From the NCBI GenBank assembly GCA_951406725.2, contig OX597815.1:70742001-70806000 (forward strand): a stretch of DNA of 64,000 bases, in the 5' to 3' direction. The stretch's first letter is position 1, and each line of letters starts with the position of its first letter. Both the position numbers and the translations under genes were made by a program. This document shows, in pieces, positions 1 through 45,619 of this stretch. Origin of the DNA: Octopus vulgaris (lineage: Eukaryota). The notes under the pieces are model-generated. The model was given only the letters and a program-made list of their open reading frames with translations, did no database searches and was not told where the DNA came from.

Positions 1-832
1 TCTTGGCTCCCCCACACCGAAGAAGGCCAAGCAAAGCAAGTACACCAGGAAGCTCATGATGATCCCCTTTTTCGACAGCAAAGGCATAATCTACACCCAC
101 TGGGTTCCCTTTGGCCAGAGCGTCACCAAAGAGTATTTTGTGGAGGTTTTGAGGGAGTTCGGGGAAAGATTTCCCTACAAAAGGCCAGAGCTCTACCAAT
201 CGGGTCGGTGGCATCTACACCAGGACAATACACCAGTCCACAATTCCATCCTGGTAACCAACTACTTGACAGAGATGGGCATTAAAACTGTCCCTCAACC
301 GCCCTGCAGTCCAGATCTTTCTCCCTGTGACTTTTGGTTTTTCTCCAGGCTGAAAGAGAAACTCAAAGGTAGACGTTTTGATGACATTGAGAAGATAAAG
401 GAGGCTGTGACAAAGGTCCTGGACACTTTCACTTTGGAGGACTTTCACGGAGCTTTCACCAAGTGGCTAGAGCGCTACAACAAGTGCATTGAAGTGAAAG
501 GATCCTACTTTGAAGGAGAATAATTTTGTACCTCTTTGAAACTAATAACTATCTCTTATTTCTTTATTGCCCACAAGGGGCTAAACATAGAGGGGACAGA
601 CAAAGGGATTAAGTCAATTACAACGACCCCAGTGCGTAACTGGTACTTATTTAATCGACCCAGAAAGGATGAAAGGCTAAGTCGACCTCGGCGGAATTTG
701 AACTCAGAACGTTAAGACGGACGAAATACCGCTCAGCATTTCGCCCGGCGTGCTAACGTTTCTGCCAGCTCGCCGTCTTCAACTAATAACCATCTCTTCT
801 GCAAAGGTCTCAAAACTCTTGAATGCACCTGG
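1..832 (+). mobile_element. mariner (DD34D) transposon, 3' part: catalytic domain ORF 56-523 and right TIR, interrupted by a SINE
   Basis: ORF has HLHQDNTPVH, PPCSPDLSPCDFWFF (YSPDLAP-D motif) and ends KCIEVKGSYFE*. The terminus ...GAATGCACCTGG is followed by TA at 833-834. Confidence 0.9.
558..780 (-). mobile_element. tRNA-derived SINE (octopus OK-like family) with 18-bp target-site duplication
   Basis: Minus strand begins GGCGAGCTGGCAGAAACGTTAGC (A box) with a GAGTTCAAATTCC B box. Flanked by AACTAATAACTATCTCTT (540-557) and AACTAATAACCATCTCTT (781-798). Near-identical copies at 14973 and 49231. Confidence 0.85.
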
Positions 833-850
833 TACATTGATTGAACAATC

Positions 851-1048
851 ATGTCTGACGCCACTGCACCCGCTTCTGTTGGTCCTTTTAAGGTCACTGC
901 TGGTAGAAAAGGAAAAAAACTAAGAAGGTACACGTTAAACCAAAAACTGAAGGAAGCTAAGAAAAGTGGTACCAAGAAAGCAGCCACGAAACTTATAGCC
1001 CCAAAGGAAGCCGCCAAAACACCCAAGGCCGCAGCAAAGAAAAAGTAA
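851..1048 (+). pseudogene. H1: histone H1 paralog lacking the globular domain (65-aa Lys-rich ORF, still open); pseudogene or tail-only basic protein
   Basis: Start CAATCATGTCTGACGCC-CTGCACCCGC and end AAGAAAAAGTAAACGAACTTTACA match the H1 gene at 26725. MSDATAP joins directly to ASVGPFKV (= ASGSYKL of the intact gene). Confidence 0.8.
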
Positions 1049-1118
1049 ACGAACTTTACATAAAAAAACAACAAACATTACAAAGTGACTTGTAAAATAT
1101 AATTGTATAAAATAATTC

Positions 1119-1533
1119 GGATCTTTTCGGTTTGAATGACAGTTTTTTCTAGCGGTGTCATATGAAATTGTCACCCATAATTATTACCCTAGTGTCGATC
1201 TATTGCATTTCAATCTGTTTTAGGGTTAGGGGTGGGGGGAAGGGTATATTTTTTTCTTCAGAAATGTAAATAAACCCAATCTGTTTCTTAAACGAGGGAC
1301 ATTCATACGGCACAGAATGTTTTTTTTATCTTAATAGACGTCATTGATTGGTTGAAATTGCAGAAATTAAAGAAAAAAAAAAACAAGAAATATCTTACAA
1401 ACTATAGAATTTTCTCAATAAAGCCAAGAGAAAAAGATGTTTTATAAACACATTCTACCAGTATACGAAGTTTAAAAGTGTTTAGTTATGCGGAAATTAT
1501 TTTAAAAAACTGCCGTTCAAACCGAAAAGATCC
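1119..1533. mobile_element. Merlin-like MITE inserted in the 3'UTR of the H1 paralog
   Basis: TIRs GGATCTTTTCGGTTTGAA.../...TTCAAACCGAAAAGATCC, 8-bp TSD AATAATTC (1111-1118, 1534-1541), internal TTAGGGTTAGGGG. GG termini with an 8-9 bp TSD fit the Merlin superfamily. Confidence 0.8.
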
Positions 1534-2607
1534 AATAATTCTTGTCATTAATATTTCAACCGATCATTTCCTCCGGTTTTTTCCCTCAGTATGAACTTTT
1601 ATACATTTTCATCTGTAAATATTCATTTGTCATTAATGGAGGGCGTTTGAATAATTCTTATGGAAATCGCTCTTCCAATATTCGTTTAAAAGATAAAGAT
1701 TCATTATTTCAAATTAAATTCACTTTTTTTTTTTTTGCATGCTATTCGAAACCATTTTATGTCCGTTATATATCTTTACTTTTGAGAAATCCGCACCTAG
1801 CAATTTATCTGGTTGCAGGTATATTATTTCTGTTTAATATGTTGTAGCGACATATTCAAGCTATTTCATCTGACACCAGATCTTTTTAAATGTCTGTTGT
1901 GTGTGGAACTCCACCACTGACAAATATAAACCGAATAGGCTGCAACATTTGTGGTAAAATATATAGCCTATAAATATTAATATACACAGGCAGGTGTTTA
2001 CTACAACTCTGATAATGTCTAGGATTTTGTTTGCCACCTTCCTTCTCGGGGTTCATAAGCAACTAGCCTCCTCTCACCAAAAATTGCTCTGCCACCTATA
2101 TCAGAAACAAGTGACAGATTCAGAAATGAGCAACAAAATGTAAAAGTGATGCAGCAGATAATATTCACACATAATTGACAGTTGATGAGGTCATGATTGG
2201 GTTGATACTGGGGCGGCAACATGGGGTTCTTTGGAATGTTGCTTCAGTGTACATATTCTTATAAAATGTATTGACAAGCCATTCTTTTATTTCAGGCCTT
2301 ATACGGACTTAAGCACCGAGACTGTATTGTCAATGAATTTAGCTGCTATTCGTAGAATATTTAGGCAATATAAGTACTTGCATATAATTATTTTAATCAA
2401 GTGTTTAATCTCGTGTTAGCTTCTAGTCCACCAAACACAACCCATGGGCGAAAGTATTCCACCTACGACCATCCTGACTTATTTTTCATTGGATCGAACG
2501 TGTTTTCTAATGAGGAAAAGTTGCTTTAGACACTGAAAACTATACAACTGACCCAGTTAATTCCATCAATTTTATTTTTCCCTCGCCGATTTTAGAAAAG
2601 GCGGTCA

Positions 2608-3570
2608 TTTGATCGCTCGAGTTGCTCGAAATAGCAGCCTAATCTCTGGATAAATTTCTCAACTGAAGGGTGAAGGAGTCGTCCGTTACTCACAAATCAG
2701 GGATCTTGAAAACAAGTCGCTTTTTTCATTTGCCATCCATTTCACACACTCGGCCTTATTGGAAATAGCTGGCAAAGCATCACTGGAATGACCAAACCAA
2801 AGCGAAAATAAACATGTAGAGCACAAATAATTTAACATCCAAGTAATTTAGCAAAATAAAAACGTGTAAGATCAGAAACAAAACATTTCGACTCATTTAC
2901 TTAAATGTTTTCATTACACTAATTTCTCTTCTTTAAAGATGGATAACATTTAACAGAGAAGTAAACGGTGGAATCAAGTGAACCACGGCCAGCCAACACA
3001 CAGGAAGCTGGGTCCCCACCCTCATTCCAGCATTTCCTTCTGCAATTTACTCCAAGACACCATCACCCATAGGCAAAAATACTGAACGTATGACCATCCC
3101 ATTTTGTTTTATTTGACCTTAAAATGGTCAGCTGTAGGTCAGTCGCATTTGAAAATTTGGCATTCAGATGTAATTTTCTATTTTTACGGGAGAACTGGTC
3201 AATTTAAATCTTTTCCGATACTTTGATCGCTCGACTTGCTCGAAATAGCCAAATCTCAGTGGATAAAATTCGCAACAGAAGGTCCTGGAGTCGTCTGTCA
3301 CTCACAATTCAAGGCCTTTAAATCCAAGTTGCATTTACTCCATTTAACATCTTTGCTAGAAATAGGTAAACCAGTCCTTCTCAAAGGGGATGGTCATTGG
3401 TGTAACAACCCAAAGCGGAAAGACATGTAAAGTTTCTTTTCTTAAAAAGGTTTAGTTGCTTAGTTTTTCTTTAAAAATGGATCTAACATTTAACCCAAGT
3501 AAACGGTGAAATCTGGCCCACAACCAATCAATACACAGAAGGCTGATTTTTGTTTCAGCAGTTCCATAGA
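2608..3570 (+). repeat. degenerate tandem duplication (~615 bp period)
   Basis: TTTGATCGCTCGA-TTGCTCGAAATAGC...GGAGTCGTC...AAGTAAACGGTG occurs at ~2608-3010 and ~3222-3548. A third homolog lies at ~28200-28550. Confidence 0.7.
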
Positions 3571-26724: not shown

Positions 26725-27303
26725 ATGTCTGACGCCGCTGCACCCGCCGCACCCGCTCCCGCTGCACCCAAAGCTAAGAAAGTAAAAAAGGTGAAGAAAG
26801 CTTCGAGCCATCCTCCCTACATTGATATGATTAAGGACGCCCTTGTGAAGAGCGGAGAAAGAAAGGGTCTCTCTCGTCAAGGGATCGTTAAACGCATTGG
26901 AGCCAGCCACAGTGTAAATACCCAAGATAATGTCATCCTGAAACAAATTAAATTGGCGATTAAGAGAGGTGTCGCCAACAATGTTCTGAAACAGCTGAAA
27001 GGAGTTGGAGCTTCTGGTTCTTATAAACTTGCTCCTGGTAAAAAAGAAGAGGCCAAGAAGAAGAAGAAGAAGCCGGCATCAGCTAAACCAAAAGTGAAGA
27101 AACCTAAGACAGCCGCTAAGAAAAGTGGCGCTAAGAAAACTAAGAAAAGCCCAGCAAAGAAGGCAGCTAAGAAATCAGCCGCTAAGAAACCGGCTAAGAA
27201 AGCTGCTAAGAAACCCGTTAAGAAACCCGCTAAGAAACCCGCCGTTAAGAAAACTGCCGCCAAGAAGAAGCCTGCCAAGAAGGGTGCAGCCAAGAAAAAG
27301 TAA
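26725..27303 (+). CDS. H1: linker histone H1 (H1/H5 family), intronless, 192 aa, divergent variant
   Basis: Ala/Pro/Lys N-tail, winged helix HPPYIDMIKDAL...ERKGLSRQGIVKRI...KLAIKRGV...LKQLKGVGASGSYKL, Lys/Ala/Pro C-tail, ATCATG start context and upstream H1 promoter elements. Confidence 0.97.
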   Translation: MSDAAAPAAPAPAAPKAKKVKKVKKASSHPPYIDMIKDALVKSGERKGLSRQGIVKRIGASHSVNTQDNVILKQIKLAIKRGVANNVLKQLKGVGASGSYKLAPGKKEEAKKKKKKPASAKPKVKKPKTAAKKSGAKKTKKSPAKKAAKKSAAKKPAKKAAKKPVKKPAKKPAVKKTAAKKKPAKKGAAKKK

Positions 27304-36313: not shown

Positions 36314-37852
36314 CGAAGGTTGTGCCGAAACTATTGCACATATAGGCAAAATGTTTTTATTAACTGGCATAGGTTTTTCAAATTGGACATGTTGCAGAAT
36401 AATTCTTCGTCTATACAAAGATACTACTTAACGTAGTCTACATCACAAGCGTTGCTCTTGCGTCATCATTGCACCCAAGCTCCTGAATACTCTTTGAAAG
36501 AATTCAAGGGCGTACTGTTGTACCTATTTCTTCACAATGATTTCCATCTCGTTTGTGTCATCAATTCGCTGTCCCCGAAGACTATCCGTCGTTGGGTCGA
36601 AGAGGTGGAAGTTGGAGGGCGCCAGGTCCGGGCTGTTCGGTGGATGGAAGACTGCCCAATTTTCTGGTTGCGTGATTTGTTGCCAAAGATATATGCTGCA
36701 ACGGTGAATGTAGTTCGTTTTCAGACTCATGTTTAGTCTCATTCTCTTGATGGCTTCCCTAAACTTTTAGAGAGTCTCAAGGTACCGCTCGCAGTTAACA
36801 GTGCAACCATATTGCAGAAAACAAAGGAGAACGACGCCAATTTTTTCTTAAGAAACTGTCATTATGACTTTCACTGCCAATCGCTTTCTCTAGAACTCCT
36901 GAGAAGGTGAAAAAGATGTGACGCATTCCACGGTCAGAAAGTTCATTTACGGATCATATAGATACGTCAACGATTCATTCATTGTCACCAGATCAGGGAA
37001 AAGTGTCTTTAGTTTAAGCTATATCACCAGTTAATATGCTGTGTTTCTAAAAACCCGCTATTTCTTTTGATAAGCTCTCTTCCCTTGCCCAAGGCTTTAT
37101 GCGCATTGCTGTTTTCATTTCTGCGTACGTGAAAACCTGATTCGAAGCATCTCCCCCCACCCATATTCACGGATGAAATGCCTTTAATCACCCAGGTTAG
37201 AGTCAAATGGTTAAACAAGGTATCACGAGCTTGAGCGAGAAGAGCGGCTCATCTCATCAGGCCATTGTCAAATACATCTTGAAGAATTTCAAACTGCCGG
37301 CTAATGAGAAAGCTGTCACTATCCAAACTAAGAAGGCTTTGAGAAGAGGTGTTGCTACTGGATTGTTGAAACGCTGCCAACAGATCAGAGTAGATTTTCA
37401 TTCCTTTTTTCTTGAAATCGGGTGTCAGCTGCCGAAAAAAGCCATTTACACAGACTTTCAGATACCCAAAGTCTTCCATCATCTCCTGTTATGCATTCTT
37501 ATCATAGTATTGCGCAACAAGCTCGCTGATTTGTTTCAGCGGCCACAGTTGATGGTCTCCCACTGTGGTTTCTCTTCAATGCTGTTTCCCCTTCTTTAAA
37601 CTTCCTAATCCAGCTGTGCATACTGCTAGTGTCAATGGTGTCATCTAAATAATCTGCAGTCATCTGTGGATGTAAGACACCCTACACACCTCGCTCTTCA
37701 AACACTCAATGATTGCACGCTGCCTTTGTTTAGAACGTATTATTCACTTGTAATGAAGAACGTTCATGCACACACACACACACACACATGGTCAGTAGAA
37801 GGTTAGCTTTTTGTACCATTATCCAAGGCAAACAGTTTGGCAAGACTTGACA
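36314..37852 (-). mobile_element. degenerate mariner transposon containing an H1 insert
   Basis: Minus-strand pieces RQRAIIECL, SWIRKFKEG, FGYLKVCV..RQLTPDFK (WVPRxLT region) and HPPNSPDLAPSNFHLF. TA-CGAAGGTTGTGCCGAAACTATTGC end with a decayed counterpart at ~37828-37852. Confidence 0.8.
37186..37372 (+). pseudogene. H1: isolated histone H1 winged-helix fragment from a different H1 paralog
   Basis: NHPG*SQMVKQGITSLSEKSGSSHQAIVKYILKNFKLPANEKAVTIQTKKALRRGVATGLLK. Ungapped against the 26725 gene, 19/56 identical from Met. The Tyr of HPxY is now TAG. Confidence 0.85.
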
Positions 37853-44380: not shown

Positions 44381-45619
44381 CATTAAGAATGAAATGTTCA
44401 ATTTTCTTATGTAATAAGTTTGACAATCGTTAACTCTAATGTTTTATCCTGACAATTCTTTGTTTTACAACATTGAAGAGTTACCTCATCACTTTTCGAA
44501 ATGCAATTCATGGTGTCTGATTATATTGTGAGTTTTGTCTTGTAACAATTCTTGTGAACTCATGGATAAATAAAAAATTCGTGTTGTTTATGAATATGAG
44601 TTCCGTTGTGGAACCAGTACATCCCAAATAGCTCGAAACATCAATGAGGTGTTTGGTGAAGATGTGGCGAATGAGCATGCTGTATGTTGGTGGTTTGAGA
44701 AGTTCCTATCTGGTGACTTTTTCTCTTGGAAATCAGCCCCATGGTAGACCTGAGACCAAGGTGGATAATGGTGAGTGGAAGCAGATACATCTCAAATTAC
44801 GCATGAGTTAGCATCAAGGTTTGCTGTTTCGATTCCAACTGTATTGGACCATCGGAAACAAAACGGCAAGGTAAAGAAGCTGGACAAGTGGGTACCACAC
44901 GAACTGAATGTGCATCAAATGGCAAGTCGTCTTCAAATTGCTGCTCTTTGCTGTCACAGCATAAAAGCGAAACATTTTTGCATCGTATTGTTATGTGTGA
45001 AGAAAAATAGATTCTTTTCAACAAAAGCAAGCGTTCTGCATGGTGGTTGGATAGAGACGAAGTGTCAAAGCACAATCCAAAAAATATTCACCAAAAATAT
45101 CTAATGGTGTCTGTTTGGTGGTCCAGTTCTGGTGTCATCCACTACAGCTTCATGATACCTGGTAAGTCAATTACAGCGGATGTATACATCCACCAATTGG
45201 ATGAAATGATAAGTGAACTTATAATTAAACAACCGAGATTGGTCAATGGAGACAGGCCAATTCTTTTGCAAGACAATGCTCGACCACATGCTGCACAAAG
45301 AACGCTACTCAAGTTACAGGAATTGAACTTGGAAGTACTGTCATCTACCATATTCACCAGACCGTGCATCAACTGACTACCACGTTTTCCAGGCATTAGA
45401 CAACTTTTTGCAAGGAAAAAACTTCAAATCTGAAGAAGATGCAAAGACAGCTTTCGTGATTTCATCATCTCTTGCTCTCCAGAATTCTTCGCTGCCGATG
45501 AAATGGCAAAATTGTAATGATAATTTAGGTACATTCTTCGATTAACTACATTGATTTTTATTGAGATAAAGTAAAATAATTTTCAGTTCAAAACCGGACA
45601 TTTCATTCTTAGTGACCTG
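44376..45619 (+). mobile_element. full-length but inactivated mariner (Hsmar1/SETMAR-like) inserted in (TA)n
   Basis: TIRs AGGTCATTAAGAATGAAATGT / ACATTTCATTCTTAGTGACCTG. Broken ORF 44562-45545 with WFEKF.SGDF, KLDKWVPHEL, LMVSVWW and LLQDNARPH, and a stop at codon 4. Confidence 0.92.

Follow-up and report, generated by a model that had tools for sequence, protein, structure and literature searches.

The stretch of DNA considered here, referred to throughout as the window, comprises 64,000 nucleotides of Octopus vulgaris (assembly GCA_951406725.2, contig OX597815.1, positions 70,742,001 to 70,806,000 of the forward strand). At its left end is a short open frame related to histone H1, and directly before it lies a mariner element whose transposase frame starts 541 nt before the window, so that only part of it had been visible to the reader who made the initial annotation. 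The positions of the features are collected in Table 1.

Table 1. Features of the mariner and histone H1 locus, in window positions except where a contig coordinate is given
Feature	Position	Strand	Basis or remark
H1 promoter TATA box, followed by H1 5' UTR	G000:C2:70741125		upstream of the left inverted repeat
Left inverted repeat of mariner	G000:C2:70741262		upstream of the window
Start of transposase ORF	G000:C2:70741459		541 nt before the window
3' part of 354-codon mariner (DD34D) transposase ORF	1..523	+	reading frame, Pfam, Mos1 alignment
Left copy of 16-nt target-site duplication of nested SINE	540..555	+	15/16 identical to 781-796
High-copy SINE-like repeat nested in mariner	556..780	.	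very high depth; between transposase stop and right inverted repeat
Right copy of SINE target-site duplication	781..796	+
Decayed right inverted repeat of mariner	803..834	+	ends in TA inside H1 5' UTR
Final 16 nt of H1 5' UTR	835..850	+	homology to paralogues
H1 remnant, 65-codon 'tail-only' frame	851..1048	+	reading-frame list, paralogue alignment
Junction of 264-nt in-frame deletion, GC microhomology	872..875	+	alignment; crossed by contigs in 8/8 runs
Length-variable A-run	913..919	+	window length in 4/8 runs; +11 nt in 3/8; +12 nt in 1/8
First stretch of H1 3' UTR	1049..1113	+	homology
High-copy MITE-like element with terminal inverted repeats, in H1 3' UTR	1114..1537 (about)	.	AATAAA at 1269 and 1417
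Remaining H1 3' flank	1570..1760	+	homology with L001 and L002
Intact 192-aa histone H1 paralogue, comparison copy	26725..27303	+	Pfam PF00538 at residues 29-103

Histone H1 and mariner sequences at the locus

Homology of the promoter and 5' UTR to two H1 loci elsewhere on the contig, L001 (the window's intact H1) and L002 (77% over about 860 nt), breaks at the left inverted repeat of the mariner and resumes past the right one. Because H1 homology flanks the element on both sides, the mariner must have inserted in sense orientation at a TA within an H1 5' UTR. The repeat nested within the element is SINE-like. Counting from a presumed transcription start 30 nt past the TATA box, the transposase AUG is the second on the transcript, after a four-codon upstream frame, and the H1 ATG is the 22nd, 1.7 kb in. 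Divergence is lower in the proximal promoter than farther out in the flank (11/113 vs 91/528, p = 0.048). A motif, CT(A/G)CTACGTC(C/G)G, stands before the start codon in seven of eight H1 loci (not L008), mostly immediately 5' of a TATA-like box, and is retained ahead of the transposase, at L031:1104.

Of the eight H1 matches that the genome search yielded, four lie in a 350-kb stretch of the remnant's contig, and six H1 loci, four of them intact, lie on one strand within G000:C2:70.43-70.78 Mb (L005, L002, L003, the remnant copy, L001 and a locus at window 37180). The last of these, at 37180-37422, is likewise a broken H1; it belongs to the L003 / O. bimaculoides H1-delta type, and its 5' end is gone, with a stop where the globular domain begins and its tail swapped for unrelated sequence. 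The H1 remnant is 84.6% identical to L002 over 195 aligned nt and 80.2% identical over 197 to the window's intact H1. Since its upstream flank is 21% diverged from both L001 and L002, and these are only 12% from each other, the remnant copy branched off before they split, outside that pair. A 3' stem-loop is seen by eye behind L004, L006 and L007 but not behind the cluster H1s, for which reason the cluster looks replication-independent. The best named relatives of the intact paralogue are H1s of Argonauta hians, at 78%; the Argonauta H1s P0001 and P0003 were considered as orthologues of the remnant copy and set aside as of unclear orthology, and as the Argonauta H1s supply no clear pre-deletion sequence, no codon-level dN/dS is given for the remnant.

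Is the locus transcribed? Eight of 20 public sequencing runs containing the locus were compared; they carry four organism labels, here A to D, and are near-identical (about 99%). Six of the eight are small (57-134 million letters), five being guessed as RNA, and 'RNA-like' is to be read as a guess throughout, none being on record as RNA. Contigs of six RNA-like runs continue unbroken from the end of the SINE (about 750) into the remnant. In run X17 overlapping contigs cover L031:1176-2581 and 2752-3147, with a gap only at the SINE, and in X11 they cover L031:1496-2281, 2339-2528 and 2753-3108. Coverage in X17 and X11 sets in at the TATA-box bin, while the DNA-size run X15 bridges L031:615-1503, and this onset is a weak hint of transcription starting at the H1 promoter; uncovered stretches in RNA-like runs (window 1676-1927; L031:421-1120) carry no weight as boundaries. 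A transcript that begins at the H1 promoter and reads through the element is likely, although contigs as such are silent on strand, start, tissue and level; no spliced form is among the contig joints listed. Further along, more contigs of RNA-like runs lie at window 1896-2720: X17 has one of 2.5 kb beginning at about 1896 and X1 has shorter ones, and there is a TATAAATA at 1969; possibly this is another transcript.

Age of the transposase and selection on it

Between window positions -541 and 523 the transposase frame is free of stops, with a length of 354 codons. It has Pfam matches above cut-off to HTH_48, Transposase_1 and DDE_3, aligns with Mos1 and with SETMAR, a relative in the PDB, and retains an intact DD34D triad (D162, D255, D290); the combination of a helix-turn-helix and DD34D transposase between inverted repeats with a TA target is that of a mariner. 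Among the 45 matches of the DNA search, for which the best 40 of 2456 candidates were scored, the next-best genome copies are 72-80% identical. The best 24 non-self loci, which as top matches are biased towards good preservation, are all broken, with means of 4.8 stops and 6.8 frameshifts. A protein search of the genome (120 matches; 115 of 55,248 candidates scored) gave no full-length stop-free member of the family and, over at least 200 aa, no copy closer than 65% identity; in L068 and L070, which are partial family matches, the matched part is stop-free, and the full-length stop-free matches belong to other families, at 31-39% identity. Among 1126 matches in the protein collection (best 73%) there was no orthologue. 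The transposase thus appears to be single or low copy among the best-scored candidates, where a closer copy could be missed.

Other mariners were noted in passing. L064 (G000:C28:3280488-3281528) is a full-length stop-free transposase frame; at 39% identity it stands outside the main young family, and it may be either young or another domesticated copy. The family in question (31-34% identity) is a younger one whose stop-free frames, about 354 codons long, are numerous and spread over many contigs, and it was possibly active recently. Short frames at window 36524-36742 and 45104-45376 resemble, by eye, decayed mariner fragments.

For selection, the reference was the consensus of the other 24 copies and the test was Fisher's, against the pooled dead copies; a simple comparison of dN/dS with 1 (p = 2e-9) was set aside because dead copies likewise score below 1. 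The open copy has a dS of 0.23, vs 0.24 for the pooled dead copies, and a dN of 0.06, vs 0.15, giving an omega of 0.26 where the dead copies range over 0.45-0.83 (p = 1e-4). The difference is strongest in residues 1-115, the DNA-binding region (0.19 vs 0.82, p = 8e-4), and is present in residues 116-170 (0.09 vs 0.50, p = 0.015), whereas in the catalytic region, residues 171-354, it is not significant (0.37 vs 0.57, p = 0.14). Where the consensus and six outside relatives are invariant, the changes in the open copy are clustered in its catalytic half; a two-codon deletion and CSPDLSP for YSPDLAP are among them. It is in the DNA-binding half that the constraint is centred. In the tree, which is a star, the open copy has the shortest branch (0.081 vs 0.12-0.21), and its non-coding parts have diverged like those of the dead copies, by 18% vs 16% on the 5' side and at 12 of 71 positions on the 3' side: the insertion is as old as its dead sisters. 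Could a frame of 354 codons have stayed open for that time by luck? In neutral simulations it did so in 0 of 60,000 at full divergence and in 3 of 60,000 at three quarters of it. Because the frame is open and constrained while sisters of equal age are broken, we consider it likely, with good though not full confidence, that an old mariner with its transposase behind an H1 promoter has become a domesticated gene, predicted to encode a DNA binder, and that the H1 remnant is an untranslated leftover in its 3' UTR.

Has that constraint lasted to the present? The transposase may have been constrained for a time after insertion, for instance as a repressor while its family was active, and now be released and beginning to decay: an omega of 0.26 averages the entire length of the branch, the mariner family is long dead, and between labels A and B the frame has three amino-acid and two silent changes, too few to judge present constraint or to demonstrate release. 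One allele may even lose a catalytic aspartate. This last is from a contig of X11 with three changes in 7 nt at L031:1938-1944, one of them D162N in the first catalytic Asp, and it is either a real allele or a chimeric contig. However, the same locus is seen under all four near-identical organism labels and in the four runs compared over the transposase frame no stop or indel is listed, the stop codon itself having changed only to another stop (TAA to TAG); release of constraint is accordingly improbable. The one frameshift listed for the transposase copy comes from the edge of the alignment, where its stop codon lies, and the frame is open.

It is likewise improbable that the copy arrived late from a low-copy mariner lineage that was still active, had its low dN from before the insertion, and is now a passively transcribed fossil. 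Such a long-lived active lineage would also yield a high dS with a low dN, and the intact triad and still recognisable inverted repeats are in keeping with it. Yet the element's own inverted repeats differ at five of 32 positions where the two consensus ends of the family agree at 32 of 32, a SINE is nested within it, divergence of the H1 remnant that follows has reached about 15%, and no close sister is among the best-scored candidates; moreover, the losses from the invariant catalytic-half residues described above are unlike the result of selection for transposition.

The H1 remnant

Relative to the intact H1 at 26725, the remnant lacks 264 nt in frame (CDS nt 24-287, window 26748-27011), and with them most of the N-tail and the winged helix. 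A 3-nt insertion directly follows the deletion, and the tail is short of about another 40 codons. Opposite slips, in the A-run at 913-919 and in one near 951-955, leave about 12 codons off the ancestral frame. The 65 amino acids encoded at 851-1048 include 17 K and 3 R (31%), two of the three arginines deriving from the frameshifted stretch, vs 48-49% K+R in parent tails, so that the product would be less basic than an H1 tail. Much of this had been read correctly from the letters alone: an in-frame loss, put at about 260 bp, of N-tail and globular domain; its join over a microhomology, which is GC, in GCACCCGC|TTCT; retention of the original ATG, stop and 3' UTR, all homologous in the alignment to the intact H1; two compensating slips in A-runs, with the alternate frame reading TKKVHVKPK; and the 20 K/R. 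The comparison with the H1 at 26725 served well for the deletion, though not as the nearest paralogue, which is L002, 130 kb upstream, and the initial annotation was silent on the further tail codons lost, the mariner end at 834 and the MITE splitting the 3' UTR. As contigs cross the deletion junction in all eight runs, the remnant is a real feature and not an assembly error.

Searches with the 65-aa frame returned little. PF00538, the winged helix, is absent from it in the Pfam search, where ParD (E 0.006) fell below cut-off and was taken as compositional. For this low-complexity query no homologue of 35-114 aa was among 27 candidates, and the protein collection held no exact match to it, to the H1s or to the transposase.

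In other samples the frame is not dependably open. The four label-A runs have the A-run as in the window and the frame open; with the run longer by 11 nt (X13, X15 and X17, of labels B and C, from three studies) it stops after 27 codons, and with 12 nt more (X16, label D) there is an open frame of 69 codons, beside a weaker second contig without the listed change. X17 has in addition a nonsense change in the window's frame, 1025 A>T. Of the two options offered by the initial annotation, a decayed duplicate that stayed open by chance and an intermediate in an H1-to-protamine-like transition, the first is supported and the second is not, since the stops or frameshifts in orthologous copies that it had counted against an intermediate were found in three of the eight runs (labels B and C).

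Does openness in the remainder call for an explanation? In a neutral simulation, with substitution and indel rates taken from the dead mariner copies and the large in-frame deletions taken as given, 14-17% of 20,000 runs left a frame of the remnant's size open when divergence was full, and 21-25% did so at three quarters; when the start codon was kept the figure was 9-18%, and adding a one-in-three chance for the 264-nt deletion brought it, again with the start codon kept, to about 3-6%. Given the large in-frame deletions, the openness is no more than chance. The in-frame tail deletions are the best argument for past coding constraint, though they may equally predate the insertion, and alternatively may follow the 12-nt periodicity of the tail.

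That the frame is translated as a protamine-like, 'tail-only' sperm H1, perhaps off a transcript that is spliced, or has a start of its own, and so bypasses the mariner, is very improbable: it could draw on a native ATG and stop in frame in the window and four of eight runs (open in a fifth at +12 nt), on the frame-preserving 264-nt and tail deletions, on junction-spanning contigs in six of six RNA-like runs and on the resemblance of the cluster to replication-independent H1, a lineage related to a clam PL protein according to PMC11607694, but against it are the shut frame and second nonsense change just described, the 21 AUGs ahead of its start, contigs running unbroken out of the SINE, the reduced basicity, the want of a homologue among the 27 candidates and the chance figures above. 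Though the initial annotation had counted an absence of junction-spanning transcripts against its intermediate, and RNA-like contigs do span the junction, they are better read as the 3' part of a transposase transcript. Octopus sperm already use true protamines, a cysteine-rich one in Eledone being the subject of a paper, and Mytilus PL-IV is cut from a longer precursor and is not known to be made by gene deletion. Mytilus PL-III and PL-IV resemble the remnant in being short, basic and H1-related (PMC10046793), and PL-IV at 6.5 kDa is near its size (PMC11607694); however, they are abundant in sperm, whereas the remnant is less basic than its parent tail, has 21 AUGs ahead of it and is closed in its sister organisms. 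In the available portion of PMC6341066 no octopus protamine sequences were found.

By itself, then, the 'tail-only' H1 is an ordinary decayed duplicate. It is like other unprocessed pseudogenes of tandem H1 clusters, which are duplicated with their promoter and broken by transposons, deletions and frameshifts, and is unlike them in that its promoter appears still to be used, by the inserted transposase.

Known systems and a proposed history

The obvious comparison is with SETMAR (Metnase, from Hsmar1, in primates), where, as here, a mariner transposase is fixed at one site under a host promoter. PMC6326780, a second-hand source, gives it a KA/KS of 0.1 for the DNA-binding vs 0.7 for the catalytic region, beside 0.19 vs 0.37 for the octopus transposase, and has it binding remnants of transposon ends. 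Unlike the octopus gene, which is unfused and has its triad intact, SETMAR is a spliced SET-domain fusion that has lost the third catalytic Asp; and while it has kept its host coding sequence, that at the octopus locus has decayed. Closer in some respects is LOC26532114 of the Drosophila obscura group, described in PMC13548663: it too is lineage-restricted and near full-length, uses a neighbour's promoter and has kept the DNA-binding part. However, its promoter is bidirectional and serves a living gene as well, its dN/dS is 0.7 and it has no inverted repeats, whereas in the octopus the promoter's own gene was displaced, omega is 0.26 and inverted repeats are present.

PMC13548663 also supplies six criteria for domesticated Tc1/mariner genes, which extend to intact syntenic orthologues that form a clade of their own in distant species, to expression and to function in vivo. 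Of what these call for, the octopus transposase has the transposase homology, the low copy number and an intact constrained frame; an absence of inverted repeats or target duplication is also among them, and here the repeats are decayed (27/32) yet recognisable, so on the strict list the gene is a candidate and not a member. For Octopus, the part of PMC10027918 that was available has families derived from pogo, P and hAT and names no mariner case. The locus itself was not found described in the literature covered, including the accessible parts of PMC13282606 and PMC9115989; supplements, subscription papers and genome annotations fell outside that scope, and supplements could list it as an annotated gene.

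How might the arrangement have arisen? An H1 gene would first have been duplicated, leaving a redundant copy, and a mariner would then have entered the 5' UTR of that duplicate, in sense, at a TA. With this the transposase AUG would have become the first strong start on the transcript from the H1 promoter, upon which translation of H1 would have ceased and its coding sequence decayed, to be now, as is likely, the 3' UTR of the transposase transcript. The host would have kept the transposase for its DNA-binding half, with the catalytic activity probably lapsed, though the three aspartates persist. By analogy with known cases, the targets of the N-terminal helix-turn-helix region may be its family's inverted repeats, which it would bind either to repress the family or to act as a regulator at remnants, a suggestion on which we are evenly divided. 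Tentatively, and perhaps with somewhat more doubt than belief, the whole may be seen as a gene replacement in place, in which a transposase took over a spare H1 promoter, the H1 coding sequence became a 3' UTR and an octopus-specific DNA-binding regulator, expressed on the H1 programme, came to target the ends that its transposon family has left across the genome.

With the idea of a protamine in the making gone, a false lead is closed. In its place stands a candidate domesticated gene with a readable record of its birth, as the donor promoter, the insertion site, the displaced host gene, two intact paralogues and many dead sisters that serve as neutral controls are all to hand. It would show a route to domestication through the promoter of a redundant duplicate, without fusion, of a kind hidden by repeat masking, and it offers a testable transposon-derived regulator in a group where transposons have often been proposed to have shaped regulation.
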